Assembly: GCA_041556195.1 (NCBI GenBank)
Contig: JBFFIY010000006.1
Location: 1-60,681 of the forward strand
Reading direction: 5' to 3'
DNA: 60,681 bases
Source of the DNA: Enterobacterales bacterium
Lineage (GTDB): Bacteria; Pseudomonadota; Gammaproteobacteria; Enterobacterales; GCA-002770795
This document shows, piece after piece, positions 1,866 to 50,805 of this stretch. Position 1 is the first letter of the stretch; each line of letters begins with the position of its first letter. The position numbers and the translations under genes are program-made. A model generated the notes under the pieces. That model ran no database searches and was not told the DNA's origin. It saw only the letters and a list, made by a program, of their open reading frames with translations.

Positions 1866-1868
1866 AAA

Positions 1869-3584: not shown

Positions 3585-3663
3585 CTTTAGAATGATGGGG
3601 GAATGAGCTTGTAAAGGCATGGATCTCTGTGGATCTATTTGAAAATTCAGTTTAATGAAGAAG

Positions 3664-7152: not shown

Positions 7153-7659
7153 TTATTTTTGTTCATCCAGATAAATTCTCAGCGCAGCTTTTATCGATGG
7201 AAAAGCTATTTGTTTAAAATTTATCTGCTCGGGTCTAAACCAATTCACCTTACTGATTTCAGATGTTTGCAGTACCCAGTTAAGTGGATATTTTTGTTCA
7301 GAAACAAACACACTATCTAATGTTCGGTATTCAATATTTTTGTATAGATAAGTGTTTGGCTGAGAGCATATGTATTGCCAGTTCTGTATATTAACAGCCA
7401 GTTCTTCTTTTATTTCTCTTGATAAAGCCTGCTCTAGAGATTCATTGGGATCAACAAAACCTCCGGGCAGATCAAGCAAACCTAAGCCTGGAGATTTCGC
7501 TCTAGTGGTAAGAAGTATTTTTCCCTGATAGACAATAATCGCGGCAACTGCGGAAGCAACATTGTGATAATAAGTAAAGTTACAGTCAGAACACACAAAA
7601 TATTGCTGCTTAATGAATTCAATTTTGGAGCTATTACATGTGGGACAATATTTAAACAT
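7153..7659 (-). CDS. NUDIX hydrolase with N-terminal Zn ribbon
   Basis: CPTC...CSDC; Nudix box GGFVDPNESLEQALSREIKEEL. Confidence 0.88.
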   Translation of the reverse strand: MFKYCPTCNSSKIEFIKQQYFVCSDCNFTYYHNVASAVAAIIVYQGKILLTTRAKSPGLGLLDLPGGFVDPNESLEQALSREIKEELAVNIQNWQYICSQPNTYLYKNIEYRTLDSVFVSEQKYPLNWVLQTSEISKVNWFRPEQINFKQIAFPSIKAALRIYLDEQK

Positions 7660-7734: not shown

Positions 7735-8961
7735 TTATGAAACAATGCCCGGTTGCAATGATTTAATAATTTCTATGCATCCACATATAGAATGATAGTC
7801 TGTACGCCCCATGGCTACTGCTGACGGAGCAAAGATTTTGTTGTCATAAGTTAAGTTCCGGTGCCAACACTTTTGTTTATGGTCAACCATATGTGTCCAG
7901 GAATACTGCCACAGTTGCTGGTAAATACACCAATACATATTGTTTTTCAGTTGATTGGCCAGTAATGCGGATGCGGCGATGGTTTCTGCGTGAACCCAAC
8001 TGTACTTGCCGTTACTACAGATCTCGCAGGATGGAGAAAAACCGTAATAAAGGCCACCATAATCACTGTCGTAGGCAACCCCCATTGCCCTGTCAAATAA
8101 CGTTTTTGCCCGTGATACTAACCAGCCCTGAGGGCTGTATCTGTTTATGAGCAGGAGCAGTTTTGTCCATTCGGTGAAGTGACCTGGTTGGTAACCCCAT
8201 GGCCGCAGTTTATTTTCTGTATCGCCTGCATTGTAATTAAAATCGACTTGCCAATGATGATCATAATGCTCCCAGATCATGTCATTACACTGCGTGGCAA
8301 GATCGACAGTAATGCGGCGGGCGATAACTATAGCACGCTCTAAATAACGTTGTTCTCCAGTTGCCTCAAAAGCGCTGATCAGCGCTTCACAGCAGTGCAT
8401 ATTGGAGTTTTGACCGCGGTAGGTAGAAACCCTGTTTAGTTTTGCGTCTATGACGTCCACATATAATTGATCCTGCTCCCGCCAGAAGTAACGTTCCATT
8501 AGTTGAAATGTTTCCTCGATATAATCGAATACTTCTGTGGCGCCCGCCTCATAGGTACGTGCATAAGCCATAAGAACAAATGCAATGCCATAACAGTAGT
8601 TATCTGCATCTCTGATTTGTCCATTTTCGAGGATCCAGGCATAACCTTTGGTTTCCGGGTTACGATGTCCATCACGTAGAAATTTTACTCCATGCCTGGC
8701 CGCCTCCAAATAGCTTTGGCTGACAAATTGTTGCGCCGCTGTGGCAAAATTTATAGTTAGACGGCTACTGCTTACCAGGTGCCGCTGGGTATTAGTTCGA
8801 CTTGCTTTTCCGTTGTTATCGAAATGCTGGAAATAGCCACCGTTGCTCTCATCTATACATTGTGGGTAATAAAAACCCAAAATGGAGCGGACATGTTCAA
8901 TAAGAAAATCTGTAGAACGAAAGTTTATCTGAGATTTTATATTATAGGTTGATTTCGTCAT
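7735..8961 (-). CDS. AGE-family sugar epimerase/isomerase (YihS/mannose-isomerase-like)
   Basis: RHLVSSSR, YRGQNSNMHCCEA, IWEHY, PWGYQPGHFTEW, KYSWVHAE, DYH; ORF extends to 9048 but ATG 8961 is the more likely start. Confidence 0.85.
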   Translation of the reverse strand: MTKSTYNIKSQINFRSTDFLIEHVRSILGFYYPQCIDESNGGYFQHFDNNGKASRTNTQRHLVSSSRLTINFATAAQQFVSQSYLEAARHGVKFLRDGHRNPETKGYAWILENGQIRDADNYCYGIAFVLMAYARTYEAGATEVFDYIEETFQLMERYFWREQDQLYVDVIDAKLNRVSTYRGQNSNMHCCEALISAFEATGEQRYLERAIVIARRITVDLATQCNDMIWEHYDHHWQVDFNYNAGDTENKLRPWGYQPGHFTEWTKLLLLINRYSPQGWLVSRAKTLFDRAMGVAYDSDYGGLYYGFSPSCEICSNGKYSWVHAETIAASALLANQLKNNMYWCIYQQLWQYSWTHMVDHKQKCWHRNLTYDNKIFAPSAVAMGRTDYHSICGCIEIIKSLQPGIVS

Positions 8962-9351
8962 TCTAATCTCTTGAGGGGGGAGGTTACTTGTTAACTGAAC
9001 CGGGGATAACTTGGTTATTGAATCTGGTTCCACCCGCCTCCATGCCACCGACTAAGATGTTTTCAGAAGTTAGATTAATCATCATTTTGATCCTAAATTA
9101 CGCTGCAGATGTTGTTCTGGAGTTTGTCCGGGAATAGCTTCCATTCTCGGATAAGTTACAGGTGTTCAGCAAAGAAATTTGTAATGAAATAAAAACAACA
9201 AAGTGAAAGTGTATTGCCGTTATCAAGAGCTGTTGATCTTTGGCTATAACGCATCTTTTTAGCACTTTTTTCTTTCTATCTTCGTTAGAAAAAATCATCT
9301 GAAAATCTGCATTATCTCCAAAGATAAACATCCCCTATGTTGTTTTAATGG

Positions 9352-12105
9352 CTAGAACTTCATTCGAGCGCCAAATGCAAAGCGACTACCGGTATCAGCA
9401 AGCTCAATGACACGATTTTCATAGATTGAAAAAGAAAGAGTTTGTTCATCGGTTATGTTTATTGCTTCAAAGAACAAATTAATGTCTTCGGTGATATCGT
9501 AACTTGCGCTCGCATCCCACTGACCATATGAGCGAATACTTTTAGGTTGTCCTCGATTCGCTGCAGTGGACTCGAGATAAGTATCTCTGTAGTTATAGGC
9601 GATACGGGCCTGAATAGGACCCTTTTCATAGAAAGCTACAGCATTCCAGGTTTCTGAAGTTTGATCTTCTGCTACACCATCAGTTTCCAGAGTCACATCT
9701 GTAAAGTTCGCTAGTATGCCTAAACCATCAAAAGGTGCAGGTAATGTGCTGAAGGTGTATTGCGCCGACAACTCAAATCCTTCGATATCACCTTTACCTG
9801 TATTCTCTGGGCGATTTGACAAGAAGTCAAAACCAAGAATTTGAACTATATTGGTTTGTCTTTGAGACTGATTAGAGAGATCTTTGTAGAACACTGCAGC
9901 ACTCAGGTAACTGACATCATCCATATACCAGGTTGCATTCAAATCGTAATTCCATGCTTCCATTGGTTTTAATCCTGGATTACCACTAGATACATTGCGC
10001 TCTCTTTCACGCACATTGAAATTTCGAGAAAGCATTAAGTCGCTAAGGGTCGCACGGGTAAGAGTCTTGCCGAGTGCCGTGCGTAGCACAACATCTTCAG
10101 ACAGATCAAACTTGAAATTCGCAGTAGGTAACCAAACATCATACGAACCCGTTTCCTGTATAGGAATAGCATCTGAAAATACAGGTACTGGATCGCCATT
10201 AGGTGGGACAATGATCTCTAATATTTCCTGGCCTACGCCTGAGGACGTAATATCGGTTTGTGTATAACGAAGTCCCAGGTTACCGGACCAGGGCGTATTA
10301 CCAAGTTCACCCGTAAAATTCGCCTGGATGTAAACACTGATATTCTCCTCTTCGACTTCTCCACCAGATCCTGGTACTGGTTGTACGCCCAGGGTACCGC
10401 CATTAGCTGCAATAACTGCTCTTGTGGCAGCGGGATCTGCGGTTAGGGCAATTCCTGCATCAGACAGGAAAAAAGCCTGTAATTCAGCAATTGAATATGT
10501 GGGGAAATCCGTATTGAACGAACCACCATCAAGAAATCCACTAGTATCTACAATAGAGAATAGATCCTGTGGAATGGCTACTCCACAAAAAAGACATTGG
10601 ACATTACCAGGGGTCTTGGCAACAGTTTTCCCTTTTTCACGAGTGGCGTAACTAAGGCCTGTCTGTACAGAAGTCAGGGTTCCTGTGTCAAAGGTATAAT
10701 TAAAATCGGCTGTCGCCTGGAAGGTTTCGTCCTCAATGCTCCTGCCTTCCCAGGTAAACCAACCGAATGTTGCTTGTGAAGTATCACTTACATCACCAAT
10801 ATTAGAAAACACAGGCAAACCATTGGGGCTTTGATCAAACACTACTGCAGCAGGATCAGATACATTAAGGTTGGCATCGAACCATGCCTGATTGCCTGCT
10901 GTACTGTCTGTTGATTTTGAATAAGCGACATCAAAAACAGCTGAAAGATGATCGCTAAAGATCCAGTCTGCGTTAAAGCCCACTTGCTCGGTTTCGGCTA
11001 GACGAGGTCGAATAAAAGAAACGATTCTCTGGTTGGTGATCCCTCTGGAATGAATGACAGTATTATTCGCATCGACCATTGCTTCTGTTACATTATTTGG
11101 ATCCTGGTAATGAAAAATAGAGCGGCTGTCATCATTAACGTCAAGCTTGGAATAAAGCCCATCAAGGGTAAGTCGCAAATCGTCACTGACCTGCCATTGT
11201 AGTGCCGCTGTTGCGCTGCTCCGTTCACGATCAGTTTCGTTAATATCATAACTAACAAAAGTTGGTATAGAAACACCCCCTAACTCCGGCGTACCGTCAT
11301 TATCAAAATCCAGGTCACGGTTAGCTTCGTAGCCATCTGTAAATACTCTTTCATTACGAAAATCGCGTTTGATATAGGCGAATGACAGCAGAGCACCAAA
11401 TTTGCCATCCATAAACGTGTCACTGACAAAACCTGAAATTTGCGGCGATGTCTCTTCTCGTGAATCATCATAAACTCCTTTGGCAGATAAATGTCCTCTA
11501 AAACCGTCAAAATCCAGCGGGCGTGACGTTTTCATATTAATCGTTGCGCCAATGCCGCCTTCAATTAAGCTGGCTGTAGGTGTTTTGTATACATCTGCAG
11601 CGCTCAACAGTTCAGCAGGAAGAATGTCAAAACTAAATTCACGACCATCGTTTTCCGTAGCAAGAACACGGCCATTTAATAACACTGTGTTAAACGCAGG
11701 CCCCATGCCACGTACGGTAACAAACTGGCCTTCACCACCTGAACGCGAAATAGTAACACCAGGAATACGTTGTAAGGCTTCAGCTACGTTTTGATCGGGA
11801 AACTTACCTAGGTCTTCTGCAGCAATTGAGTCTACAATAGAATCTGCATTGCGCTTAGTAGATAACGCGGCTCTTTGGCTGTTGCGTATCCCCGAGATCA
11901 CAACAACGTTTTCCTCGTCACCGATTTCATCCGTTTGATTTTCATCTGCGGTTTTATCTATTTCAGCAAGCTTAGCATCTATAGGCTTTGCATCTATAGG
12001 CGTTGTATTTTCATCTGTGGCGTTAGCAACTATTGGAAGTTGCGCTAATGCAAAAATAATTGCAACAGCCAATTTATTGGACTTAAACTCCGTCTTTCTT
12101 TTCAT
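9352..12105 (-). CDS. TonB-dependent outer-membrane receptor (glycan type)
   Basis: Signal peptide, plug motifs DSIAAEDLGKFPDQNVAEALQRIPGV and VRGMGP, GNPGLKP, C-terminal Phe. Confidence 0.93.
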   Translation of the reverse strand: MKRKTEFKSNKLAVAIIFALAQLPIVANATDENTTPIDAKPIDAKLAEIDKTADENQTDEIGDEENVVVISGIRNSQRAALSTKRNADSIVDSIAAEDLGKFPDQNVAEALQRIPGVTISRSGGEGQFVTVRGMGPAFNTVLLNGRVLATENDGREFSFDILPAELLSAADVYKTPTASLIEGGIGATINMKTSRPLDFDGFRGHLSAKGVYDDSREETSPQISGFVSDTFMDGKFGALLSFAYIKRDFRNERVFTDGYEANRDLDFDNDGTPELGGVSIPTFVSYDINETDRERSSATAALQWQVSDDLRLTLDGLYSKLDVNDDSRSIFHYQDPNNVTEAMVDANNTVIHSRGITNQRIVSFIRPRLAETEQVGFNADWIFSDHLSAVFDVAYSKSTDSTAGNQAWFDANLNVSDPAAVVFDQSPNGLPVFSNIGDVSDTSQATFGWFTWEGRSIEDETFQATADFNYTFDTGTLTSVQTGLSYATREKGKTVAKTPGNVQCLFCGVAIPQDLFSIVDTSGFLDGGSFNTDFPTYSIAELQAFFLSDAGIALTADPAATRAVIAANGGTLGVQPVPGSGGEVEEENISVYIQANFTGELGNTPWSGNLGLRYTQTDITSSGVGQEILEIIVPPNGDPVPVFSDAIPIQETGSYDVWLPTANFKFDLSEDVVLRTALGKTLTRATLSDLMLSRNFNVRERERNVSSGNPGLKPMEAWNYDLNATWYMDDVSYLSAAVFYKDLSNQSQRQTNIVQILGFDFLSNRPENTGKGDIEGFELSAQYTFSTLPAPFDGLGILANFTDVTLETDGVAEDQTSETWNAVAFYEKGPIQARIAYNYRDTYLESTAANRGQPKSIRSYGQWDASASYDITEDINLFFEAINITDEQTLSFSIYENRVIELADTGSRFAFGARMKF

Positions 12106-12357: not shown

Positions 12358-13446
12358 TCAGGAATGAATAGCTTCACCTTTTGCATCAAATAGTAAAATT
12401 TTTGGAAGGGCAATGCCAAGAGTTAAGCGATCTGAACTATTGAATTTGTGCTGTCCCTGAAGTTTTACTCTAAAATCGAATTTATCGAATAATTTAGCGT
12501 AAATATACGTCGCATCGCCTAGAGACTCAACTTCATTCACGATCAAATCTAACGCCATATCTCTATTATTTACAGTGGTACTTATATGTTCTGGCCGCAA
12601 GCCCAAAATAATCTCATCATCCATGTTCAATGTTGGGAGATTAACCTCAAGACAGATTTTTTTGTTATCAAAAAGGTTGATAAAAAGCTTATTTTTCTGG
12701 TTTTCTATGATTTTTCCTTTCAATAAATTGATTTTGGGACTACCAATAAAATTAGCGGCAAAGATATTTTCAGGATGATTATAAAGTTCCAGAGGAGATC
12801 CAATCTGAACAATATTCCCTTCATTCAGCAAGACGATACGATCAGCCATTGTCATAGCCTCAATCTGATCATGAGTAACATAGATCATTGTATTATCAAG
12901 TTTCTTATGTAACTTGATTAGTTCATGCCGCATTCGAACTCGCAATTCAGCATCCAGATTTGACAAAGGTTCGTCGAATAAGAAAATTTTGGGATCACGA
13001 ACAATAGCTCGTCCAATAGCAACTCTTTGTCGCTGACCGCCGGAAAGCTGGCTTGGAAGACGCTCCAGATAATCACCTAATTGCAATATATCCGCAGCAT
13101 GCTGGATTTGTTGTTCAATGTATTGTTTGCTGCACTTCATATTTTTAAGGCCAAAACCAAAATTTTCTCTAACTGTCATATGAGGATATAAAGCATAGGA
13201 TTGAAACACCATGGCGATGCCTCGTTTGGATGCTGCTATCTTTGTCACATTGTTGTCTTCGATATAGATCTCGCCAGAAGTCACTTCTTCCAGGCCGGCT
13301 ATCATTCTCAATATAGTGGATTTCCCGCAGCCAGAAGGGCCGACTAAAACAATGAACTCTCCTGATAGAATGTTAAGATTGAGATTATGAATAGTTTCTA
13401 TTTGGTCATAGGTTTTGACGAGATTTTTAATTGTTAAGCTGGTCAT
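12358..13446 (-). CDS. Sugar ABC transporter ATP-binding protein (MalK/MsmK/UgpC family)
   Basis: GPSGCGKS, VFQSYALYPHM, LSGGQRQR, DEPLSNLD, YVTHDQ. Confidence 0.94.
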   Translation of the reverse strand: MTSLTIKNLVKTYDQIETIHNLNLNILSGEFIVLVGPSGCGKSTILRMIAGLEEVTSGEIYIEDNNVTKIAASKRGIAMVFQSYALYPHMTVRENFGFGLKNMKCSKQYIEQQIQHAADILQLGDYLERLPSQLSGGQRQRVAIGRAIVRDPKIFLFDEPLSNLDAELRVRMRHELIKLHKKLDNTMIYVTHDQIEAMTMADRIVLLNEGNIVQIGSPLELYNHPENIFAANFIGSPKINLLKGKIIENQKNKLFINLFDNKKICLEVNLPTLNMDDEIILGLRPEHISTTVNNRDMALDLIVNEVESLGDATYIYAKLFDKFDFRVKLQGQHKFNSSDRLTLGIALPKILLFDAKGEAIHS

Positions 13447-13450
13447 ATAG

Positions 13451-14518
13451 CTATAGTTTTCCTATTTTTGCAGTACTGCCTCTTTTTATTATCCTCGCTT
13501 CAATATTGATCCTTTGACCCTGCTCCTTACCTTTTTGCAGCAACGCTTCAGCGGCTTTACGACCTTTTTCATAGGCCTCTTGTCTGACCGTAGTTAACGC
13601 CGGTAATGTAGAGTTTAGATTTTGGGGTAGAATGTCATCAAATCCGGTTACCGAAATACGCTGGGGAACAGCTAGGCCAAGCCGCTTACATTCAGTCATT
13701 GCACCATAAGCGAGTCGATCGGAGAAACAAATGAGCGCGGTAATGTCAGGTTGTAGATCTAACAGATGTCGCGCTGCTTCAGCTCCACCATCTTCACTGT
13801 TAGTTGTTTCCTGGATCAAAATACTACTCATCTTAATGTTGCTTCTTCCTATAGCTTCCTTACAGCCATTTATTCGTTGGCTTACAACGTAATTATCTCT
13901 ATCCAGCACTCGATCCAGGGTACATAAATCATAACGGCCTTCTTTTATAGGAAAGGTAATTATACCGATCTGGCGGTGTCCAAGAGACAAAATATAATCA
14001 GTCATTTCGCTCATCATAATTGAATCGTTGGTCAAAACACTGATATGTTCCGGCGAATCAAAGTCAACCACAACGGTAGGTAAGCCTCTGGCAAGTGCTC
14101 GCTGGGTAGTTGGATTATTGCTATAAGGAGCGTTGAGAATATAACCGTCCACCATGGCACCTAGTGGCTCAAAATCATTCACACTGCTATTTTTTAGAGG
14201 TATCAAAACGATGTTAGTCCCTTCCACTTCACAAATAGAGGAAATGCCCCGTAGGAATTCTATATCATGAGGATCAGAAAAGGCGTAGCTGAGTTGATCA
14301 TTAAAGATTATGCCAATAGCTCCATATAATCCTGTTCGAAGCGATCTTGCCGCTGGATTTGGACCGTGGTAATCAACAGATTTGGCATAATTAAATATCT
14401 TACTGCGTAGCTTGTCGGATACTTTAGTCGGATTATTGAATGCATTTGAAACCGATGTATGGGTTATACCAAGCTCTGCCGCAATAGACTTCAGAGTAAC
14501 TTTTTTTCGGCTTTTCAT
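13451..14518 (-). CDS. LacI-family regulator of the glycan locus
   Basis: HTH TLKSIAAELGITHTSVSNAFN, AARSLRTG hinge, VTGFDD, LTTVRQ. Confidence 0.9.
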   Translation of the reverse strand: MKSRKKVTLKSIAAELGITHTSVSNAFNNPTKVSDKLRSKIFNYAKSVDYHGPNPAARSLRTGLYGAIGIIFNDQLSYAFSDPHDIEFLRGISSICEVEGTNIVLIPLKNSSVNDFEPLGAMVDGYILNAPYSNNPTTQRALARGLPTVVVDFDSPEHISVLTNDSIMMSEMTDYILSLGHRQIGIITFPIKEGRYDLCTLDRVLDRDNYVVSQRINGCKEAIGRSNIKMSSILIQETTNSEDGGAEAARHLLDLQPDITALICFSDRLAYGAMTECKRLGLAVPQRISVTGFDDILPQNLNSTLPALTTVRQEAYEKGRKAAEALLQKGKEQGQRINIEARIIKRGSTAKIGKL

Positions 14519-14730: not shown

Positions 14731-14780
14731 GTTTATCGTTAAACCTTGACACGGGTAATATTTTTGGTTTAACGTTAAAC
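14731..14780 (+). promoter_or_regulatory. Promoter of the ABC/hydrolase operon with two LacI-type operators (14731-14744, 14767-14780)
   Basis: GTTTATCGTTAAAC and perfect GTTTAACGTTAAAC flank TTGACA (14746-14751). Confidence 0.72.
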
Positions 14781-14905: not shown

Positions 14906-14954
14906 TATACCCGTGATACTTTGAAATGAATAGTTTCCAAGTATCACGGGTATA
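14906..14954. repeat. Family C mini-element/hairpin in the operon leader
   Basis: Perfect 16-bp inverted repeat TATACCCGTGATACTT / AAGTATCACGGGTATA. Confidence 0.7.
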
Positions 14955-14985: not shown

Positions 14986-16260
14986 ATGAATTCAAAAATT
15001 GACAAATATAGGGCAACCGTTTTTTTGTTTTTATGTATGAGTATTTTTTTAACTGTGGCATGTAGCAGCAACAAGGGAGCAGCACTATCGCGTAAAACAG
15101 CCTTTATAGGCACTAAGATCAACTTGCAACATTTCGATCATTTGTTTACTGAAATCAACGTTGATAATAGAAAAATGGGGGTTGTAAATATTTATAGTGA
15201 ATACCCAGATTATACCTATGCGATAGAGCCAGCCGAAGGATTTGCCTGTGTGGATGACGCTGCCAGAGCTATTGTCATGTTGTCACAGTTTTTAAAGGTG
15301 CAACATAACGACGAAATTTTGAAAGAACTTAAAATGCTTATTGAGTTCGTTTTGTATATGCAAAACGACAACGGATATTTTAATAATTTTATTTGGCGGG
15401 ATCTGTCGATAAATACCCAATATAAAACCTCGGTAGCTGAAATAAACTGGTGGTCTTTGAGAGCGTTATGGAGTCTACAAGTTGCTTCTGAACTGGTACA
15501 GGCCGATTTGGGTTTAACAAGCAGAATCAAAAAGGCAGCAGATAAAGTTGTTTTAAATATAAAAAGAGATATTCCGCTAACGAATTTAACAACCGAGGTT
15601 GTTAATACGATAGAACTGCCTGTTTGGCTGCCAAATAAATATGCTGCAGATCAAGCTGCAGTAGCAATTATTGCGCTATTACCCTATTACCAAAAAAGTG
15701 ATGATAGCCAGGTATTGGAAATTATTAACGTTCTGGCAAAAGGCATAATGCAAATGCAAAAGGGTGATGCCAATAATTATCCTTTTGGCATGTTTTTAAG
15801 TTGGAAAAATCAGTGGCATTCATGGGGTAATAGCCAGGCATACGCGTTATTGTTAGCTGGACAACAACTGGAACGCCAGGAATATATACAAAGTGCGTTG
15901 CTTGAAGTTGATAATTTTTACCCTTATCTGTTGAAAAATGGTTTTGCTGAATCAATATGGATTGAACACAAAGTGGATGGATATTCTGAAACCAATAGAA
16001 AGCGTTTTCCTCAAATAGCTTATGGAATACGGCCGATGGTTTTTGCTGTAACAGAAGCGTACAGGATCACAAAAAATGAGAAATATTACACTCTTTTAAC
16101 AAAGTTTAAGTCCTGGTTTTCGGGTGTTAATGTTGCCGCCCAAATTATGTATGAACAGAGTAGTGGAAGAGTTTATGATGGTATTATTTCTACCACAGAA
16201 ATTAATATGAATTCCGGGGCAGAATCGACAATAGAAGGTTTAATGATCTTGCAAAAATAA
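14986..16260 (+). CDS. Uncharacterised lipoprotein, probable six-hairpin (alpha/alpha)6 glycosidase-like fold
   Basis: Lipobox TVAC; motifs EGFACVDDAARA, GYFNNF, QIAYG, YDG, NSGAESTIE; first gene of the sugar operon. Confidence 0.6.
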   Translation: MNSKIDKYRATVFLFLCMSIFLTVACSSNKGAALSRKTAFIGTKINLQHFDHLFTEINVDNRKMGVVNIYSEYPDYTYAIEPAEGFACVDDAARAIVMLSQFLKVQHNDEILKELKMLIEFVLYMQNDNGYFNNFIWRDLSINTQYKTSVAEINWWSLRALWSLQVASELVQADLGLTSRIKKAADKVVLNIKRDIPLTNLTTEVVNTIELPVWLPNKYAADQAAVAIIALLPYYQKSDDSQVLEIINVLAKGIMQMQKGDANNYPFGMFLSWKNQWHSWGNSQAYALLLAGQQLERQEYIQSALLEVDNFYPYLLKNGFAESIWIEHKVDGYSETNRKRFPQIAYGIRPMVFAVTEAYRITKNEKYYTLLTKFKSWFSGVNVAAQIMYEQSSGRVYDGIISTTEINMNSGAESTIEGLMILQK

Positions 16261-16276: not shown

Positions 16277-17566
16277 ATGAGGAATATTATTGAAATGATG
16301 TTGGCGGGCGCTTTTCTGTTGATAAGTGGTTGCTCTGGATCTGATCCGACACCAGAAGAATTTTCTGATGATAAGATCATAAGATTGTGGGTAGCACCCG
16401 ATGAATCACAAGAGGCGTTTTGGAAAATTGTAGTAGAACGATGGAACAAACGTGGTTCAGGCATACAGGTAAAATTCAAGACTATCCCAGCAGTAGAAAG
16501 TTCAGAAAAGGCTATTTTAACAGCTCTCGTGGCGGGTAATGCACCTGATCTATCGACCAATATATTCTCCGGTTTTGCCGCTCAACTGGCTGGTCTGGGG
16601 CAGTTGCAAGATCTTTCGGTGATGGATGGTTATAAGGAACTGGTATTGGTTCGGCACATGGAAAGCATCATGCAAGGCTGGGATCAGGGTGGGAAAAAAT
16701 ATGTCTTCCCACTTTATTCCAATCCTACATTAATTTGGTGGCGTGGTGATATTTTGCAAAAGCTTGGGATCAACAAAATACCGCAAACCTACGATGACGT
16801 CTATGAACTTTCAAAACAATATGCTGCATCTGATCATAAATTTGGGATGCAAATTATGACGGGTTTAAATTGGTACGACAGATGGTACGATTATATTTCA
16901 TTCTATTATGCCGCCTCGAATGGTGTGCCTTATATCAATGATGGCAAAGCGTTTTATGATAATGATGCGGGTCTTTCTGTTCTGACATTTATGGACACCA
17001 TATATAAGAATGGGTGGACTGCACTGGATTTTGAAAGTGATGATCCTTTAACGACAGGTTTGGTTGTTGGTGCGGTGCGGGGACCCTGGAGCGTATCTTT
17101 TTTCAAACGTATGTATCCTGATACACTGAAAAAAATCATTGTCGGGCCAATGATCCGCAAACATAAAACCGATGGGAAGGCATACACCTTTGCCGATAGC
17201 AAAGGGTTGGTATTATTCAAGCATAGCAAAGTGAAAGCGGAAGCCTTCGCCTTTATCTCCTGGGTACTTAGCAACGATGAACTTAGCCTGTTGTGGTTGG
17301 AAAAAACAAACCTTCCTCCGGCTCGTGGCGATCTGATGGAGAATGCAATATTTAAAACCTTTTATGAGGCTAATCCACTCGCAAAACAATATGCCATCTA
17401 TGTTGACGTCGCAATACCATCTGCATTCATTGAAAGCACCATTGACGTGCAAAAAATAATGGGGTTTGAAATGGTTGAATCAGTGAAATTTGGTACCAAA
17501 CCCCCTGAAACCGCATTAGCCGATGCTGTCAGACGCACCAATAAATTATTGAAGGTGGCGCATTGA
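16277..17566 (+). CDS. Sugar ABC transporter substrate-binding lipoprotein
   Basis: Lipobox ISGC, AGNAPDL, extracellular solute-binding family pattern; precedes two permeases. Confidence 0.88.
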   Translation: MRNIIEMMLAGAFLLISGCSGSDPTPEEFSDDKIIRLWVAPDESQEAFWKIVVERWNKRGSGIQVKFKTIPAVESSEKAILTALVAGNAPDLSTNIFSGFAAQLAGLGQLQDLSVMDGYKELVLVRHMESIMQGWDQGGKKYVFPLYSNPTLIWWRGDILQKLGINKIPQTYDDVYELSKQYAASDHKFGMQIMTGLNWYDRWYDYISFYYAASNGVPYINDGKAFYDNDAGLSVLTFMDTIYKNGWTALDFESDDPLTTGLVVGAVRGPWSVSFFKRMYPDTLKKIIVGPMIRKHKTDGKAYTFADSKGLVLFKHSKVKAEAFAFISWVLSNDELSLLWLEKTNLPPARGDLMENAIFKTFYEANPLAKQYAIYVDVAIPSAFIESTIDVQKIMGFEMVESVKFGTKPPETALADAVRRTNKLLKVAH

Positions 17567-18459
17567 GTATGAAATTTGGGAATATAAAACTCGGTGAAAT
17601 AAGAGAATCCCAAATAGGGGCTGCACTGGCAGTATCATTTTTGTTGTTTAACGTGATTTTTTGGGCTTATCCATTTGTATGGTTGCTTATATTGTCTTTT
17701 TCCGATTGGCGTTTTTTTGATGTGCCAACCTTTAGCGGATTGAAAAACTTTTTTATTGTTTTGGATGATCCGGAATTCTGGCGCTCATTATGGAATGTGC
17801 TCCGGTTTTTGGGATATTATGTGCCCATCGTATTGACATGTTCCCTCGCTTTTGCATTTGGTTTACAGCATATTGGTCGTGGCAAAGTTTTTATTGCGTT
17901 GTGTTTCCTGTTGGCTCACATTTCCTCCGGCGTTGCCTATTCTCTGGTTTTTACAAAAATATTTAGTTCTACTGGCCCGATGAACAGGCTCCTACTTGAT
18001 TGGTTTGGCTTCTCTATTCCCTGGTTGTCCAGTCCGTCCATGGCAATGTTTTCAATTTCCCTGGTCGTGACGTGGAAATTCGTGGGCTACTACGGACTAA
18101 TATTGTATTCAGGTCTCGTGGCCATACCCAACGAGATCTATGATGCGGCAAAACTTGATAATACCCCGCCACTCATGAGGCTGTTCAAGATCAGCCTTCC
18201 CATGATCAATTCACAACTGATTATGGTATTGGTCTTTGCCATAACGGTTGCTTTTGGCATTTTTACCGAGCCTTACATGATGACTGCTGGTGGGCCAATG
18301 GAAAGTACCAATATGCCGCTACTTGTCATATATGAATCGGCATTCCATCGTTTGCAGCCAGGTCGTGCAGCCCTGATGGCGGTAATCATTGCCATCGTCA
18401 GTTATTTAGCAATCAAAATTATGCGCAAGATCCTGGAAAAAAATGTGGAATTGGTATGA
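17563..18459 (+). CDS. Sugar ABC transporter permease (MalF-like)
   Basis: EAA-like loop IPNEIYDAAKLD, MTAGGP, hydrophobic segments. Confidence 0.9.
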   Translation: MSMKFGNIKLGEIRESQIGAALAVSFLLFNVIFWAYPFVWLLILSFSDWRFFDVPTFSGLKNFFIVLDDPEFWRSLWNVLRFLGYYVPIVLTCSLAFAFGLQHIGRGKVFIALCFLLAHISSGVAYSLVFTKIFSSTGPMNRLLLDWFGFSIPWLSSPSMAMFSISLVVTWKFVGYYGLILYSGLVAIPNEIYDAAKLDNTPPLMRLFKISLPMINSQLIMVLVFAITVAFGIFTEPYMMTAGGPMESTNMPLLVIYESAFHRLQPGRAALMAVIIAIVSYLAIKIMRKILEKNVELV

Positions 18460-19304
18460 TTGACTTAAAGAAAAAAATACCGCAAAAGAGTATAGGCAGT
18501 TGGGTTATCACCGTTTTAATGTATATCCTGGCCTTAACATGGTTATATCCATACATCTGGATGGTGATGGCTTCCCTCAAACCAACCCCGGAGATATACC
18601 ATACGGATTTATTTTCTGGCTCATTTACGTTGGATAATTACCAATTTCTGTTTGACAGTGCGGAAAAATTAAATCGACCATTTCTAAAATCTCTGTTCAA
18701 TTCTTTTTTTATTACCCTAAGTGTCACGGCCTCGGTTGTGATCACATCGGCTTTTATTGGTTATGCGATGGCAAAAATTGATTTTTGGGGACGAGAACGG
18801 GTGAATAATTTTATTCTATTTCAAATGGTTGTTCCGGCTATGATGCTTCTTATCCCCCAATTTGTTCTGATCAAACAACTTGGATTGATTAATACATATT
18901 CTGCAATGATACTACCGGTAATGGTGTCGGGCTGGGGAATATTTATGATGGCTCAGGCCTTTAAAGGGACACCGAATGATTATATTGATGCTGCAAAACT
19001 GGATCGAGCCAGTCTGAGACAGATTGTATTCAATCTTATGGTACCTCTAAATAAGTCCATTGTCGCAATTGTAGCACTGTTTACTTTCACTGGTACCTGG
19101 GACAATTTTATGTGGCCTCTGATCGTTATGTCGGACGTTGATAAAATGCCATTATCCGTGTTGCTTGCGACCTTCAGTAAACAATATGGCATCTATGTTG
19201 GACCCGTGATGGCGGGATCTGTGTTGCAAGCTCTGCCGCTTGTGTTGCTTTTTATTATTTTCCGACGATATTTCTTACAGGGAATGTCCCTGTCGTTGAA
19301 GTGA
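18456..19304 (+). CDS. Sugar ABC transporter permease (MalG-like)
   Basis: PNDYIDAAKLD, WDNFMWPLI, FLQGM. Confidence 0.9.
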   Translation: MIDLKKKIPQKSIGSWVITVLMYILALTWLYPYIWMVMASLKPTPEIYHTDLFSGSFTLDNYQFLFDSAEKLNRPFLKSLFNSFFITLSVTASVVITSAFIGYAMAKIDFWGRERVNNFILFQMVVPAMMLLIPQFVLIKQLGLINTYSAMILPVMVSGWGIFMMAQAFKGTPNDYIDAAKLDRASLRQIVFNLMVPLNKSIVAIVALFTFTGTWDNFMWPLIVMSDVDKMPLSVLLATFSKQYGIYVGPVMAGSVLQALPLVLLFIIFRRYFLQGMSLSLK

Positions 19305-19305
19305 C

Positions 19306-20934
19306 TTGAATTATATGTTGTCAAAAACAAAAAATAAATGGTGGCAAAGCACCGTTTTTTACGAGATTTATATCGCCAGTTTTCAAGATGGTAATGGTGA
19401 TGGGATCGGTGATTTTGAAGGGCTGACAAGTCGTCTGGATTATCTGCAACGCCTGGGTGTCAATGGTTTGTGGATCACACCATTTTATCCATCGCCCAAG
19501 GTGGATAACGGTTATGATGTTGCGGACTATTTTAATGTCGATCCAGATTTTGGCAGTTTGGCGGATTTTGATCACTTTATTGAACAGGCTCATGAACGCA
19601 ACATAAAAGTTATCATTGATGTTGTGCTGAACCATGTGTCGACAGAGCATCCATGGTTCAGGGAAGCCGTATCCAATCCAACATGTAAATACCGGAATTA
19701 TTTCTTTTTTCGGGATGAACCTAATGGTTGGGAATCCTTCTTTGGCGGATCTGCATGGGAAAAAGAGCCGGAGGGAAATCAAGTTTATTATCACAAATTT
19801 TCCCCGAGCCAGGCGGATCTTAACTGGCAAAACAAGGCGGTGATGGATGATATGCTGGCAGTGTTGAAATTCTGGATAGAGCGGGGTGTTGATGGCTTTC
19901 GTCTTGATGTTATTAATTTTCTTTCCTGCAATGGCATAGGTGACGAAAACCTTCTCCGTGATACTAAGGGTAAGCAAATTCACAACCATGACATTGACCA
20001 GCCGGATATTTATTCCTGCATCTCTGAAATATGCGGTTATGTCAGGGATTACAGTACATCAGTAGGTAGAGAATGTTTTTTGGTCGGAGAGGTGGGACAT
20101 GAGGAAATATCGAAATTGACTCCCTTTCAAAGTGACGATTTGCTGGATGTAGTTTTTAACTTCAATTTAGGATCAATATTAAAGTTTGATATTTGCGAGG
20201 TCTATAAACAGTTAGTCGCTATGGAGGAGCAGCATAGTGGTTTACCTACACTATTTTTTAATAGCCATGATTTGCCCAGGTCCATGAGCAGACTTTGCCA
20301 TAATAATGTTGAACAGGCTGGTGCATTAGCTGCGCTAATCTTAATGGCGAAAGGTGTAAGCTTTTTATATTTTGGTGAAGAAATAGGCATGGCCGATTTT
20401 ATTCCGGAAAGCATTAGTGAAATGCAGGATATTCAAGCAGTAAATCACTATCAATTAGCGTTAGCAAAGGGCAAGACGACACTTCAGGCATATACCAAAG
20501 CCCTTGAGGAATGTCGCGACAAGTCTCGTTTGTACATGCAATGGAACGATGACAAATTCTCTGGCTTCACTACGTCAGCACCCTGGATCGGTAAGACAGC
20601 ACCAAAAAACCTGCCCAAAGTTGAAGAACAGATCAACGATCCTGATAGCCTCTGGCATTGGTATAGAAAACTAATTGCTTTGCGCCGGGACAATCAAGCG
20701 CTTAACTTTGGCAGTTACGATATTTTGTCTCTGGACAATAAACTATTGTCAATTTCTCGTCGTTGGCAAAGTCAAACTATTCACATTCAAATAAATTTCG
20801 GTGATGTAAAACAATTTATTAACTGCAATGATTCTCATGAAGTTTTGGCCAGCAAAGGATTAAGCATTTGCAAACAAAATTGTCTATTACCTTTTGGGAC
20901 TCTAATTACAAGAGAAGTATCAGATGTTTGTTAA
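19306..20934 (+). CDS. GH13 alpha-glucosidase (oligo-1,6-glucosidase/TreC-like; probable start ATG 19315)
   Basis: SFQDGNGDGIGD, DNGYDVADY, DVVLNH, DGFRLDVIN, VGEV, NSHDLPR, YFGEEIGM. Confidence 0.88.
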   Translation: MNYMLSKTKNKWWQSTVFYEIYIASFQDGNGDGIGDFEGLTSRLDYLQRLGVNGLWITPFYPSPKVDNGYDVADYFNVDPDFGSLADFDHFIEQAHERNIKVIIDVVLNHVSTEHPWFREAVSNPTCKYRNYFFFRDEPNGWESFFGGSAWEKEPEGNQVYYHKFSPSQADLNWQNKAVMDDMLAVLKFWIERGVDGFRLDVINFLSCNGIGDENLLRDTKGKQIHNHDIDQPDIYSCISEICGYVRDYSTSVGRECFLVGEVGHEEISKLTPFQSDDLLDVVFNFNLGSILKFDICEVYKQLVAMEEQHSGLPTLFFNSHDLPRSMSRLCHNNVEQAGALAALILMAKGVSFLYFGEEIGMADFIPESISEMQDIQAVNHYQLALAKGKTTLQAYTKALEECRDKSRLYMQWNDDKFSGFTTSAPWIGKTAPKNLPKVEEQINDPDSLWHWYRKLIALRRDNQALNFGSYDILSLDNKLLSISRRWQSQTIHIQINFGDVKQFINCNDSHEVLASKGLSICKQNCLLPFGTLITREVSDVC

Positions 20935-21985
20935 ACGTTCAAAACTCAATCCCATTGTTATGCCAGATATGGTTAAACCAAGTAGGGAAGACTTCAAAGT
21001 TGATGGAACCTTCAATGCCGGTATCATAGAGCATAATGATGAAATTATTATGTTACTACGGGTTGCGGAAAGCATGTCCAGCACCAAAGAAAATGAAATA
21101 AAAACACCCCTTTTAATTGAGCTGCCTGATTCTTGGGAAGTGATAGTTAAGACTTTTCAGAGAGATGATCCCAATTATGATTTTTCTGATCCTCGAGCAA
21201 TCGTATTACGAGAAGATCCAACCCAGGTACATCTCACTTCGTTGTCCCATATCAGGATAGCTCGAAGTGTTGATGGTGAGAAATTCATAGTTGATGATAA
21301 TGCTTTTATTTTCCCAAATAATCGCTATGAAGCTTATGGTTGTGAAGATCCAAGAGTTACCCTGATCGAAGGCAGTTTTTATATTAATTATTCATCGGTA
21401 TCGGAATATGGTATTAGCACCTCCCTTGCTCGCAGTTCTAATTTTCAGCGGGTGGAGAAATTGGGAGTCATTTTTTCTCCAGATAACAGAGATGTCTGTT
21501 TCTTTCCTGAAAAGATTAATGGTTACTATTGGGCACTACACCGTCCGGCGCCACTACATCTGGGTACGCCTGAGATTTGGCTGGCAAAATCTCCCGATCT
21601 TATTCATTGGGGCGATCACCGAAGATTAGCTGGATGTTTAGGCAATGGCTGGGAGCAAAAAAAAATTGGTGGTGGCGCACCGATGCTTAAAACAGAAAAA
21701 GGGTGGTTACAAATCTATCATGGGGTAGATAAATCACAACGTTATAGTCTGGGTGCTTTGTTAATTGACCAGAATGATCCGACAAAGGTGATAGCCCGTA
21801 TGCAGCATCCCATTGTGGAACCCAGAGAGGCATACGAAGTTGAAGGCTTTTTTGGCAGTGTAGTATTTTGTTGTGGCGCTATTATTAAAGATGATGTGTT
21901 AAATATTTATTACGGTGCCGCAGATAAGGTGATGGCATTAGCGACTATCAATTTAAATGAAGTATGGCGGAACCTGTCAGTCTGA
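20924..21985 (+). CDS. GH130 beta-mannoside phosphorylase (beta-1,2-mannobiose/oligomannan phosphorylase-like)
   Basis: FNAG, LLRVAE, DPR, LTSLSHIRIARS, YGCEDPRVT, ALHRP, KIGGGAP, IYHGV, YYGAAD. Confidence 0.88.
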   Translation: MFVKRSKLNPIVMPDMVKPSREDFKVDGTFNAGIIEHNDEIIMLLRVAESMSSTKENEIKTPLLIELPDSWEVIVKTFQRDDPNYDFSDPRAIVLREDPTQVHLTSLSHIRIARSVDGEKFIVDDNAFIFPNNRYEAYGCEDPRVTLIEGSFYINYSSVSEYGISTSLARSSNFQRVEKLGVIFSPDNRDVCFFPEKINGYYWALHRPAPLHLGTPEIWLAKSPDLIHWGDHRRLAGCLGNGWEQKKIGGGAPMLKTEKGWLQIYHGVDKSQRYSLGALLIDQNDPTKVIARMQHPIVEPREAYEVEGFFGSVVFCCGAIIKDDVLNIYYGAADKVMALATINLNEVWRNLSV

Positions 21986-22013
21986 CGGGATGTTGAAGAG
22001 AGTATATTATGCA

Positions 22014-22958
22014 ATGAGCAGAAATAATCCAAAGCGTGTGAGCGAGCTATTTTCTGAATTTTGGAAAGAACGCAATAACAACAAAAACAATGCTGGCAAG
22101 CTATGTTTTAAAGGCGTGAGTAATCATGATGTCTATAATATTACTGCACCATTTAACTCAGCAAATAAAGTCATTATTGCTGGAAGAGTTGAGCCCAGAG
22201 ATCAAGAATATTCCTCCGTTATTTTTTTTGAAGAAATTGACAATGCGTGGCACCCCATTGTTGGCGCACCTATGTTCAAATTGCAAGATCCCTTTGTAAC
22301 ATTTATTAAGAATGAACTGATCTTCGGTGGAGTAGAGATCTGGGATATTGATGGAGAAAAGGGTGAGAGAGAATTGGAGTGGAAAACAGTTTTTTACCGA
22401 GGCTCCGATATTTTTAATCTGATTGAATTTTTTAGTGGCCCAACAGGAATGAAAGATATTCGATTATGCGATCTTGAAAACGGCAAGATTGCCGTTTTTA
22501 CAAGGCCTCAAGGTAGCGTAGGGGGGCGAGGTATTATTAGTTATACTGAAGTCAACCAACTAAAAGAGCTAACCATCGAAGTAATTGAGGATGCGCACCC
22601 ACTAAAAAACATGTTTCACTCCATGGATTGGGGAGGCGTCAACGAGGCTCATAGATTGGTTAATGGGGAAATTGGTTTGTTGGCTCATGTAGCCTATTTT
22701 GAAAATGATGACTCAAATCAAGAGAGACATTACTATACCTCTTCGTTTATTTTTGACCCCGTTCTCAGACGATTTAGAGATCTAAAAATTATCGCTTGTC
22801 GTAAACAGCTTGGGGCTGGGCCAGCTAAACGAAAAGATCTCTCTGATGTAATGTTTTCTGGAGGGTTAATTCGAGTTGATGAAATGGCTATTCTGTATGC
22901 AGGGGTGTCGGATACCGAAGCCCATTGGATAGAAATAGACAATCCTTTTGCCACATAA
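22014..22958 (+). CDS. DUF1861 / MTP-like (GT108) beta-propeller mannosyl transferase-phosphorylase family protein
   Basis: DVYNITAPF, IAGRVEPRD, LQDPF, GPTGMKDIRL, FTRPQG, WGGVNE, DVMFSGG, YAGVSD; ORF track start 21957 overlaps GH130, ATG 22014 more likely. Confidence 0.82.
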   Translation: MSRNNPKRVSELFSEFWKERNNNKNNAGKLCFKGVSNHDVYNITAPFNSANKVIIAGRVEPRDQEYSSVIFFEEIDNAWHPIVGAPMFKLQDPFVTFIKNELIFGGVEIWDIDGEKGERELEWKTVFYRGSDIFNLIEFFSGPTGMKDIRLCDLENGKIAVFTRPQGSVGGRGIISYTEVNQLKELTIEVIEDAHPLKNMFHSMDWGGVNEAHRLVNGEIGLLAHVAYFENDDSNQERHYYTSSFIFDPVLRRFRDLKIIACRKQLGAGPAKRKDLSDVMFSGGLIRVDEMAILYAGVSDTEAHWIEIDNPFAT

Positions 22959-44448: not shown

Positions 44449-44616
44449 ATGTGAAATCGATAAAACTTAAGGCAAACGATGTTAAACCTGATGTATTAAA
44501 GATAGAAGTTAACTCCGTAAATGTCTATTACTACAGCATTAATTAATATAAATGCAGTATTAATTAAAATAGAGCAGAAAACTTGTAAAATCAGGAATTC
44601 TACCTATGCTATAACT

Positions 44617-45690: not shown

Positions 45691-45702
45691 AAAGGAAATA
45701 CT

Positions 45703-46089: not shown

Positions 46090-46130
46090 CAAGCCAACCA
46101 GCTTCGCCCGCAAAAATACGGATCTGGACG
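46084..46130 (+). other. Truncated attC-like (integron cassette) site
   Basis: Stop codon lies within GCATAAC followed by AAGCCAACCAGCTTCGCCCGC...CTGGACG, resembling the left half of an attC; no matching GTTRRRY end found. Confidence 0.4.
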
Positions 46131-46143
46131 TCTCGAACTCCCT

Positions 46144-50789: not shown

Positions 50790-50805
50790 AAAGGATTGCA
50801 GTGAA

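Follow-up and report, generated by a model that had tools for sequence, protein, structure and literature searches.

The window, a stretch of 60,681 nucleotides from an Enterobacterales bacterium, carries a same-strand run of genes in the order LIPO-SBP-permease-permease-GH13-GH130-DUF1861, where LIPO denotes an exported lipoprotein and SBP the solute-binding protein of an ABC importer. The genes and subsites are collected in Table 1. Two palindromes of the LacI type lie upstream of LIPO; their role as operators is proposed because of their palindromic form and the adjoining gene for a LacI-family regulator, which is also found next to LIPO in proteobacterial loci. The original prediction made LIPO the first gene behind the operators, and LIPO does head the run, downstream of both palindromes.

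Table 1. Features of the LIPO locus; positions are those of the window.
Feature	Position	Strand	Basis or remark
AGE-family protein, D-mannose-isomerase-like	7735..9048	-	Pfam GlcNAc_2-epim; PDB 5X32 (D-mannose isomerase) E=5.9e-111
TonB-dependent outer-membrane receptor	9352..12105	-	Pfam Plug + TonB_dep_Rec_b-barrel
MalK-type ABC ATPase	12358..13446	-	Pfam ABC_tran, OB_MalK, TOBE_2
LacI-family regulator, divergent from the operon	13451..14518	-	Pfam LacI + Peripla_BP_3
Two LacI-type palindromic operator candidates, GTTTATCGTTAAACC and GGTTTAACGTTAAAC	14731-14745 and 14766-14780 (span 14731..14780)	.	flanked by the divergent LacI gene and LIPO
LIPO gene, exported (α/α)6-barrel lipoprotein, 424 aa, ATG start	14986..16260	+	ORF; 7TEM/YPO2471 family
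LIPO signal peptide up to lipobox Cys26 (LTVAC)	14986..15063	+	sequence inspection
CVDDAARA motif of LIPO, residues 88-95	15247..15270	+	N-terminal end of helix 89-105; D90, D91, R94 candidate active-site residues
NSGAESTIE motif of LIPO, residues 409-417	16210..16236	+	start of last helix 412-423; E413, E417 candidate acid/base residues
Lipoprotein solute-binding protein of ABC importer	16277..17566	+	Pfam SBP_bac_1; lipobox LLISGC
Two ABC permeases	17563-18459 and 18456-19304 (17563..19304)	+	Pfam BPD_transp_1
Cytoplasmic GH13 α-glucosidase, oligo-1,6-glucosidase-like	19306..20934	+	Pfam Alpha-amylase; PDB 1UOK E=2.8e-102
Cytoplasmic GH130, β-1,2-mannobiose-phosphorylase-like	20924..21985	+	best match PDB 5B0P (Lin0857) E=2.2e-101
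Cytoplasmic DUF1861 protein, related to GT108 β-1,2-mannoside phosphorylases/transferases	21957..22958	+	Pfam DUF1861 E=4.4e-109

The N-terminus of LIPO, MNSKIDKYRATVFLFLCMSIFLTVAC followed by SSNK, begins with a basic n-region, continues into a hydrophobic core, and places Cys26 in the lipobox-like context FLTVAC26, a context that we take to match the PROSITE-type lipobox pattern. The signal peptide and the lipobox Cys are real features of the protein, the lipobox having been named in the original prediction, and by this layout LIPO is predicted to be a bacterial lipoprotein and a substrate of signal peptidase II. Most of 78 homologues inspected likewise have a hydrophobic N-terminus with a Cys close behind it, and in a few cases the signal peptide is instead of the ordinary kind; the family appears to be nearly always exported. 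The GH13, GH130, and DUF1861 proteins of the locus were said to have no signal peptide, and inspection finds no hydrophobic N-terminal signal in any of them. That LIPO is the only exported protein holds for candidate enzymes but not beyond them, as the solute-binding protein also has a lipobox. The reported richness in Trp and Tyr is mild (2.4% and 5.4%, respectively) and similar to that of neighbouring genes.

The cytoplasmic enzymes of the locus bear out the earlier view that it is devoted to β-1,2-mannosides: the GH130 protein resembles Lin0857, the AGE-family protein resembles D-mannose isomerase, and the DUF1861 protein matches the Leishmania MPTs (PDB 6Q50, 6Q4X) at E=8e-50 and below. 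The Leishmania β-1,2-mannan enzymes are now filed as GT108, according to the available portion of PMC12814180, and the activity of GT108-type β-1,2-mannoside phosphorylases/transferases is described in the available portions of that source and of PMC10913872. The best PDB matches of the solute-binding protein are Lmo0859 (E=4.4e-59) and Lin1841. Glycolytic and Entner-Doudoroff genes lie downstream. The GH13 α-glucosidase of the operon is unexplained by a pure β-1,2-mannan substrate.

LIPO belongs to the uncharacterised 7TEM/YPO2471-like exported six-hairpin proteins, for which there is no Pfam model. Among proteins of solved structure, only PDB 7TEM is clearly related to it, a structural-genomics entry named ‘putative exported protein YPO2471’ to which no function is attached; a literature search on YPO2471 and 7TEM found no paper and no published function. 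phmmer aligns LIPO with 7TEM over residues 44–423 at E=5.6e-87, and the family profile does so at E=4e-160. Like LIPO, 7TEM is exported and carries the DD..R and NSGAESTIE motifs; it is about 39–40% identical to LIPO in structural alignments and has Ala in place of LIPO Cys88. The AlphaFold (AF2) model of LIPO, with a pLDDT of 88.6, is an (α/α)6 barrel, the fold that had been expected, and the structural matches of Foldseek and VIA agree. Against 7TEM, Foldseek gives TM 0.86/0.90 with an rmsd of 1.6 Å, and VIA gives Z 55.6 and an rmsd of 1.6 Å over 381 aligned residues, the next VIA match being at Z 29.4. Since the crystal structure of 7TEM already exists, the fold of LIPO is not new. The family is large, with at least 1795 clusters at 50% identity; an ESM Atlas search with LIPO returned only unnamed or generically named clusters.

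Residue conservation was counted over 111 full-length representatives, clustered at 50% identity. Two motifs mark the family, E-G-x-x-x-x-D-D-x-A-R towards the N-terminus and N-S-G-A-E-S-T-I-E towards the C-terminus; LIPO has both, and they are near-invariant in these representatives. The two acidic motifs singled out in the original prediction are family signatures rather than chance occurrences. D91 and N134 are kept in all 111 representatives, R94 in 108, D90 and E413 in 106 each, and E417 in 104; conservation is lower at N409 (97/111) and C88 (91/111). The near-invariant residues D90, D91, R94, N134, H278, D398, E413, and E417 are found where every other helix has its N-terminal end. In the AF2 model, each conserved residue is placed either at the start of one of the helices 89, 155, 221, 284, 345, and 412 or in the loop preceding it, and these helix ends and loops would make up the funnel of the barrel. 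To the funnel are assigned the near-invariant carboxylates E84, D90, D91, D398, E413, and E417, the polar residues R94, N134, R159, H278, Q284, and Q343, and the aromatic residues W156, W277, Y346, and W377. Judged by secondary-structure position in the model, the conserved carboxylates probably occupy the region of the active site of six-hairpin enzymes, as was anticipated, and by the same measure they are candidates for facing a single cleft. To name D90/D91 together with E413 as the acting carboxylates is a guess.

Architectures with CBM9, dockerin, SLH, or T9SS-tail domains are typical of extracellular glycan-degrading enzymes. Such domains are the ones found with LIPO relatives: among 28 multidomain representatives scanned, 12 have a Pfam partner domain, namely CBM9 in 5, a T9SS tail in 4, SLH in 2, and dockerin in 1. 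The original prediction had pointed to fusions of similar helical domains to mannosyltransferases. Such fusions were not found: no glycosyltransferase occurs in the 12 partner-bearing representatives, and the 120 listed of the 379 longer relatives all carry CBM9 and no glycosyltransferase domain.

No characterised family claims LIPO, in keeping with the proposal of an unassigned family. Pfam and NCBIfam scans gave sub-threshold matches only (GH127, LanC, an Ig domain, and RefZ), and 7TEM is the sole clear relative of solved structure. The GH127 match (PF07944) scores 21.9 bits vs. a cut-off of 24.9 and covers only residues 98–161, or profile positions 66–130 of 376. The hallmark of GH127 is a conserved Cys nucleophile with a Cys-rich metal site; no Cys is found among the LIPO residues kept in at least 85% of the 111 representatives, and C88, kept in 91 of them, is Ala in 7TEM. 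GH9 (PF00759) was likewise rejected, with no match to LIPO and Foldseek TM values of only 0.52–0.57 for GH9 structures; a distant relative, P0167, scores 23.2 bits vs. the GH9 cut-off of 27.7. Among the best 50 rows of a wide structural search with the LIPO model, there were no endo-β-1,2-glucanase entries, an absence from these 50 rows that does not speak for a difference.

The nearest solved folds after 7TEM are those of the AGE superfamily (cellobiose 2-epimerase, D-mannose isomerase, and N-acylglucosamine 2-epimerase), with VIA Z scores of 29.4–27 over 332–341 aligned residues, slightly above the GH76 enzymes at about 26. This ranking raises the prospect that LIPO is a non-hydrolase enzyme, i.e., a periplasmic isomerase/epimerase, lyase, or transglycosylase that remodels an oligosaccharide on an AGE-like barrel before uptake. 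R94, H278, and E413 presumably lie near the chain positions of the AGE Arg and two catalytic His, a correspondence read along the chain. The similarity to AGE enzymes is, however, at the level of the fold only: there is no Pfam match of LIPO to PF07221, and hhalign against the AGE protein of the window gives a probability of 0.2%. Known AGE enzymes are cytoplasmic isomerases/epimerases that act on free reducing sugars, whereas LIPO is exported, and its relatives’ fusions to CBM9, dockerin, or SLH better suit enzymes active on polymers. A non-hydrolase LIPO is reckoned to be distinctly unlikely.

GH76 comprises endo-acting mannan enzymes that are often lipoproteins in uptake loci and that use a catalytic Asp-Asp pair. 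The GH76 endo-α-1,6-mannanases (4V1R, 4D4A, 6U4Z) are (α/α)6 barrels of a size similar to that of LIPO. LIPO differs from them in its gene partners, which are β-mannoside phosphorylases, and in giving no PF03663 match at E values up to 10. GH76 alpha-mannanases are the only glycosidases with marginal profile matches to the LIPO family; the PDB profile matches to chains of GH76 proteins have E values between 1.3e-5 (the best, 4MU9) and 0.8 and rest only on a repeated generic helix motif. hhalign of the family against the GH76 protein from another LIPO locus, L086, gives a probability of 16%; neither this comparison nor that with the AGE protein yields an alignment from which catalytic residues could be carried over. 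Equating the Asp-Asp of CVDDAARA with the GH76 catalytic pair was considered and dropped, as it is supported neither by chain position nor by hhalign, whose low-confidence alignment pairs the GH76 residues with D222-Q223, not with D90-D91. No GH76 was found in a search of the window’s own genome, and one of five genomes reached through LIPO loci has a GH76 above the cut-off.

Linkage was followed in 80 genome loci with LIPO relatives, from Proteobacteria, Bacteroidota, and Ignavibacteria. Within the fetched DNA, GH130 is present in 70/80 loci, MalK in 60/80, the permeases in 59/80 and 62/80, and a relative of the TonB-dependent receptor in 7/80. The 10 loci with no GH130 in the fetched DNA include some long ones, e.g., L031, L038, L054, and L060. 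By inspection, of 116 GH130 genes in 68 loci all but possibly one encode proteins with no signal peptide. The association extends to a distant LIPO clade (30–45% identity), where metagenome loci of at least 7 kb have GH130 in 27/35 and permeases in 28/35. The LIPO family is a constant exported partner of β-1,2-mannoside phosphorylases across phyla, and its members occur next to β-mannoside-cleaving enzymes and sugar importers in hundreds of bacteria. This linkage to GH130 and ABC importers, together with the glycanase-type fusions, supports the reading of LIPO as a glycan-active enzyme.

In many Bacteroidota loci, LIPO lies inside an ABC operon of the order SBP-permease-permease-LIPO-MalK, in some cases with no GH130 nearby. 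Such an arrangement, along with the lack of a catalytic family signature in Pfam and NCBIfam, would suit a non-catalytic glycan-binding lipoprotein that passes periplasmic oligosaccharide to the binding protein or the ABC importer. The same operons, however, already contain a dedicated solute-binding protein, and the pocket has an invariance like that of an enzyme, with D91 and N134 in every representative and several carboxylates kept in 104–107 of 111. Moreover, binding modules of the CBM9 kind are as a rule attached to a catalytic domain rather than to another binder. We consider a purely binding role quite improbable. In a minimal locus, FecR-SusC-SusD-LamG-LIPO, LIPO is the only enzyme candidate.

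The bond that LIPO would cut is a separate matter. Fold, export, conservation, and linkage would fit equally well with a periplasmic glycosidase for a different bond, one that removes a cap or side group (e.g., α-glucosyl) or acts in an exo manner on a β-mannose-containing heteroglycan, leaving the mannoside core to the phosphorylases. A mixed glycan is hinted at by the GH13 α-glucosidase, which accompanies the module in 12/80 loci as well as in the window, and the three different GH130 types of Bacteroidota loci and the marginal GH76 α-mannanase matches also count in favour of a different bond. Against this, 68/80 loci have no GH13, the most constant LIPO partners are the GH130 proteins closest to β-1,2-mannoside phosphorylases, and there is no pointer to any specific alternative bond. 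We regard a different bond as unlikely.

The reading that we tentatively prefer, short of holding it probable, is that LIPO is a periplasmic glycoside hydrolase of an unclassified family that cuts β-mannoside-containing chains, most likely β-1,2-manno-oligomers, and thereby feeds the ABC importer. In this model, LIPO would be synthesised with its signal peptide, receive its lipid at Cys26, and stay anchored in the periplasm, probably on the outer-membrane side to judge from the Ser at +2. β-Mannoside chains would enter via the TonB-dependent receptor and be cut by LIPO, and the shorter pieces would be imported by way of the lipoprotein binding protein and the ABC permeases. Cytoplasmic phosphorylases of the GT108 and GH130 types would then release mannose 1-phosphate and mannose, with the mannose-isomerase-like protein and the products of the downstream glycolytic and Entner-Doudoroff genes taking over from that point. 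The analysis shows the fold, the export signal, the conservation of the pocket residues, and the gene linkage; catalysis, endo action, the bond cut, and the choice of acting carboxylates are what we infer for LIPO. The family is a good candidate for a novel class of enzymes that cleave sugar chains, and the endo-β-1,2-mannanase activity of the original prediction is plausible; that LIPO and its relatives form a new glycoside hydrolase family with endo-β-1,2-mannanase as the founding activity is possible but doubtful.

In other uptake systems, a periplasmic dextrinase shortens the imported chains before they reach an ABC importer; examples are MalS, in the maltodextrin system, and the chitodextrinase of Vibrio. 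LIPO may play a comparable role, between outer-membrane entry and binding-protein-dependent uptake and with cytoplasmic phosphorylases downstream; the analogy is one of logic only, as the folds and substrates are unrelated. The GH130 subfamily 3 enzymes are exo-acting and have a β-propeller fold, whereas LIPO, a helical barrel, is unrelated to them in sequence. They are β-1,2-mannosidases and would share the substrate proposed for LIPO, and they were the only hydrolases for β-1,2-mannosidic bonds found in our literature search (available portion of PMC4599007). The search found no endo-β-1,2-mannanase, the term ‘2-mannanase’ giving α-1,2-mannanase papers only, and nothing relevant on DUF1861 with GH130 or on GH130/GT108 with a lipoprotein of unknown function.

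Several observations weigh against the preferred reading of LIPO as a β-mannoside-cutting hydrolase: no member of the 7TEM family has a known catalytic activity, AGE enzymes rank slightly above GH76 among the structural matches, 10 of the 80 loci have no GH130 in the fetched DNA, the GH13 α-glucosidase does not fit a pure β-1,2-mannan substrate, and no environmental source of β-1,2-mannan is established for such bacteria. For Thermoanaerobacter, the available portion of PMC4264767 states that no β-1,2-mannan source is known.

As enzymes, the β-1,2-mannoside phosphorylases of GH130 subfamilies 4 and 6 and of GT108 have been studied in depth, and the LIPO family bears on the question of their natural substrate in bacteria and of the step that makes importable oligomers. 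If active, the family would provide a new CAZy family and the first step now missing from a widespread uptake pathway, and a function for LIPO would annotate well over a thousand ‘hypothetical’ proteins; a crystal structure and clear candidate catalytic residues are already at hand. Were it an endo-β-1,2-mannanase family, glycans of the β-1,2-mannan type would be a carbon source that is widespread in seawater, sediment, soil, and sludge and has gone unrecognised. The six-hairpin enzyme, the ABC importer, and the GH130/GT108 phosphorylases would then constitute a conserved uptake module spanning Proteobacteria, Bacteroidota, cyanobacteria, and Chloroflexi-like lineages.

Within its own order, the LIPO gene was found in only 3 of the 401 genomes searched and is therefore an accessory trait. 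Another genus has the module in a rearranged form, in which LIPO stands beside a type I phosphomannose isomerase.

LIPO, the exported lipoprotein under study, is probably a glycoside hydrolase. As the original prediction held, no characterized family claims it in Pfam, NCBIfam, PDB, or structural searches. Pfam gave sub-threshold matches only (GH127 and LanC-like), the GH127 match spanning 64 residues and scoring 21.9 bits versus a cut-off of 24.9; NCBIfam gave nothing meaningful. The predicted six-hairpin fold is confirmed because an AlphaFold2 model, Foldseek, and a Foldseek-independent structural search agree. The model, made from 28 homologues (mean pLDDT 88.6), has eleven long helixes paired as hairpins. 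Foldseek matched it to 7TEM (TM 0.86), then to GH9, AGE epimerases, and GH76 at TM ~0.5. 7TEM, "putative exported protein YPO2471", is also the sole real PDB sequence match (E=5.6e-87, residues 44–423), and again the sole real match to a 57-sequence family profile (4e-160). Thus, the LIPO fold is already represented by the solved structure of a relative.

In the independent search, 7TEM (Z 55.6) is followed by cellobiose 2-epimerase (Z 29.4), mannose isomerase (28.5), and other AGE enzymes, a ranking that brings up a rival reading of LIPO as a non-hydrolytic AGE-like enzyme. The window's own AGE protein, which matches D-mannose isomerase 5X32 (E=5.9e-111), aligns with the LIPO family at an hhalign probability of 0.2%. 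Below the AGE enzymes come GH76 mannanases (Z ~26), then GH8, GH88, GH105, and others. A GH76 protein from a LIPO locus reached an hhalign probability of 16%, with its Asp-Asp aligned to LIPO D222-Q223, not D90-D91, and the marginal GH76 matches of the 57-sequence profile come down to a generic helix motif ("Y..tGd.kYl") that recurs.

By word-indexed search there are 1828 relatives similar in length, and every one named by its source is labelled hypothetical; in an exhaustive profile search, 1795 clusters (50% identity) reached E ≤1e-3 and 256 reached E ≤1e-30. Conservation was scored in 111 full-domain representatives among 150 listed plus the query, leaving out fragments and partial matches. 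The two acidic motifs of the original prediction are present, CVDDAARA at residues 88–95 and NSGAESTIE at 409–417. D91 and N134 are invariant (111/111), followed by R94 and W156 (108 each), R159 and D398 (107 each), D90, E84, Y346, and E413 (106 each), E417 (104), Q343 (102), H278 (101), and C88 (91), the last being Ala in 7TEM. Mapped onto the secondary structure of the model, the conserved residues are predicted to lie in the first turns of helixes 89–105, 155–168, 221–238, 284–294, 345–362, and 412–423, or in the long loops preceding them. Such helix starts and loops form the substrate-binding face of six-hairpin enzymes, so that, judged by secondary-structure position, the conserved LIPO residues appear to be on that face. 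A non-catalytic binder is a further rival reading of LIPO.

The ORF is real, with an ATG start. In the N-terminus of the protein (MNSKIDKYRATVFLFLCMSIFLTVAC), basic residues come first and a hydrophobic core follows, and the surroundings of Cys26 resemble a lipobox. Of the Trp/Tyr richness claimed for it, a mild enrichment stands (Trp 2.4%, Tyr 5.4%). By inspection, the GH13, GH130, and DUF1861 proteins of the window do lack signal peptides; the neighboring binding protein is also a lipoprotein (LLISGC lipobox). Among 78 homologues from genome loci, inspection showed a hydrophobic N-terminus and then a nearby Cys in most, and an ordinary signal peptide in a few. Pfam partners in 28 multidomain representatives were CBM9 (5), a C-terminal T9SS sorting domain (4), SLH repeats (2), and dockerin (1), with 16 having none; CBM9 is found in all 120 listed of 379 longer relatives matched. 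The fusions to mannosyltransferases cited in the original prediction are not supported, as no glycosyltransferase fusion occurs in these 28 or 120 proteins.

LIPO does head its operon, with two LacI-type palindromes upstream and a divergent LacI gene. On the same strand follow genes for the binding protein, two permeases, GH13, GH130, and DUF1861, after which come Entner-Doudoroff and glycolytic genes. An inverted repeat without a trailing T-run lies 3′ of both palindromes and 32 nt 5′ of the start codon; it might act in the transcript, as a regulatory hairpin, or else serve as a third site for a protein.

Features of the window and of loci holding LIPO relatives
Feature	Location	Strand	Remarks
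LIPO	14986-16260	+	424 residues
LacI-type palindrome 1	14731-14745		upstream of LIPO
LacI-type palindrome 2	14766-14780		upstream of LIPO
Inverted repeat, 21 nt	14906-14954		upstream of LIPO; arms 95% complementary, 7-nt loop
Second sugar module	345-4692		MFS transporter, GH13 enzyme (571 aa), LacI regulator
Glucokinase, another LacI	5078-7147		after second sugar module
NUDIX hydrolase	7153-7659	-	adjoins mannose-isomerase-like gene
Radical SAM, zinc-ribbon, macro-domain proteins	44521-46443	+	in a row, just 5′ of Druantia genes
DruH	within 47487-57048	+	1100 aa, 1339 bits
DruE	within 47487-57048	+	2081 aa, 2431 bits
HMG-CoA reductase	57249-59063	+	605 aa, with N-terminal domain; adjoins defence genes
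Phosphomannose isomerase (type I), APH-family kinase	L084 11397-13638		directly 3′ of LIPO
379-aa exported protein	L084 8719-9855; L085 11263-12399		between DUF1861 and LIPO
578-aa family	L015 13594-15327		9 Bacteroidota loci
822-aa family	L077 2497-4962		6 Bacteroidota loci
GH130 type, ~475-490 aa	L007 8512-9978 and similar		directly 5′ of LIPO in many Bacteroidota loci

A scan of genome contigs matched at least 599 stretches, 574 of them encoding a LIPO relative, and the best 80 were used as loci. With window proteins as tblastn queries (E ≤1e-10), GH130 was detected in 70/80 loci, the permeases in 59 and 62, MalK in 60, the binding protein in 53, GH13 in 12, LacI in 9, the TonB-dependent receptor and DUF1861 in 7 each, and the AGE protein in 1; these are lower bounds, because many loci are short contigs. 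Clustering of all ORFs gave 116 GH130 proteins in 68 loci, SusD in 25, SusC-type receptors in 24, and LamG_3 proteins that carry T9SS or FIVAR modules in 20, plus smaller clusters. By inspection, the GH130 neighbors lack signal peptides, with one possible exception. In a distant clade (30–45% identity to LIPO, from metagenomes and including CBM9-fused forms), GH130 occurs in 38/80 loci; in those of at least 7 kb, GH130 is found in 27/35 and permeases in 28/35. One locus consists of FecR-SusC-SusD-LamG-LIPO and nothing more.

The window's binding protein matches Lmo0859 and Lin1841, the latter presumably a binder of β-1,2-gluco-oligosaccharides. The best match of the window's GH130 is Lin0857 (E=2.2e-101), then other β-1,2-mannoside enzymes; for a Bacteroidota GH130 representative, the nearest PDB entries are β-1,2-mannoside phosphorylases. 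The DUF1861 protein matches Leishmania MPT enzymes. GH130 subfamilies 4 and 6 are home to β-1,2-mannoside phosphorylases, whose linkage specificity GT108 shares (PMC12814180), and a bacterial GT108 enzyme is reported to be a bifunctional phosphorylase/transferase (PMC10913872). A β-1,2-mannoside phosphorylase cluster linked to an ABC transporter has been described, for which the same paper notes no known natural substrate source (PMC4264767).

We propose that LIPO is a lipid-anchored periplasmic enzyme that would shorten imported β-mannoside chains, most likely β-1,2-linked, to pieces sized for uptake by the binding protein and ABC permeases; phosphorolysis in the cytoplasm would come next. 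The narrower assignment as an endo-β-1,2-mannanase is tentative, and we hold it with less than even confidence. The rival here is that LIPO, as a glycosidase, cleaves a different bond or removes a cap, the GH13 partner hinting at a mixed glycan. The fold and pathway logic are of known kinds; the function of the family would be new, as might its activity. A literature search, mostly outside subscription journals, turned up nothing published on YPO2471, 7TEM, a β-1,2-mannanase, or a LIPO-type partner of GH130/GT108; a recent CAZy assignment possibly covers the family already.

The LIPO gene is present in 3 of 401 genomes searched of the window's order, counting the window's own. Another genus of this order has a reshuffled module, with LacI, then SBP-permease-permease-GH13-GH130-DUF1861, a 379-aa exported protein, and LIPO, followed by a phosphomannose isomerase and a kinase of the APH family that could act, as a sugar kinase, on released mannose. 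The 379-aa protein has no Pfam match, and nothing related to the TonB-dependent receptor of the window appears in the fetched locus of this genus; the protein may be an outer-membrane channel dedicated to the same substrate. The recurrent 578-aa and 822-aa families, also without Pfam matches, are further components of Bacteroidota LIPO loci. The ~475–490-aa GH130 type has an N-terminal extension of ~230 residues outside the Pfam model.

Elsewhere in the window, PADLOC gave no match for the radical SAM, zinc-ribbon, and macro-domain proteins. The two very large genes next to them match Druantia type III defence proteins, a known anti-phage system with no relation to LIPO. For the NUDIX hydrolase, GDP-mannose or another nucleotide sugar is a possible substrate, though only as a guess. 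The region of the second sugar module is a carbohydrate-catabolism island.
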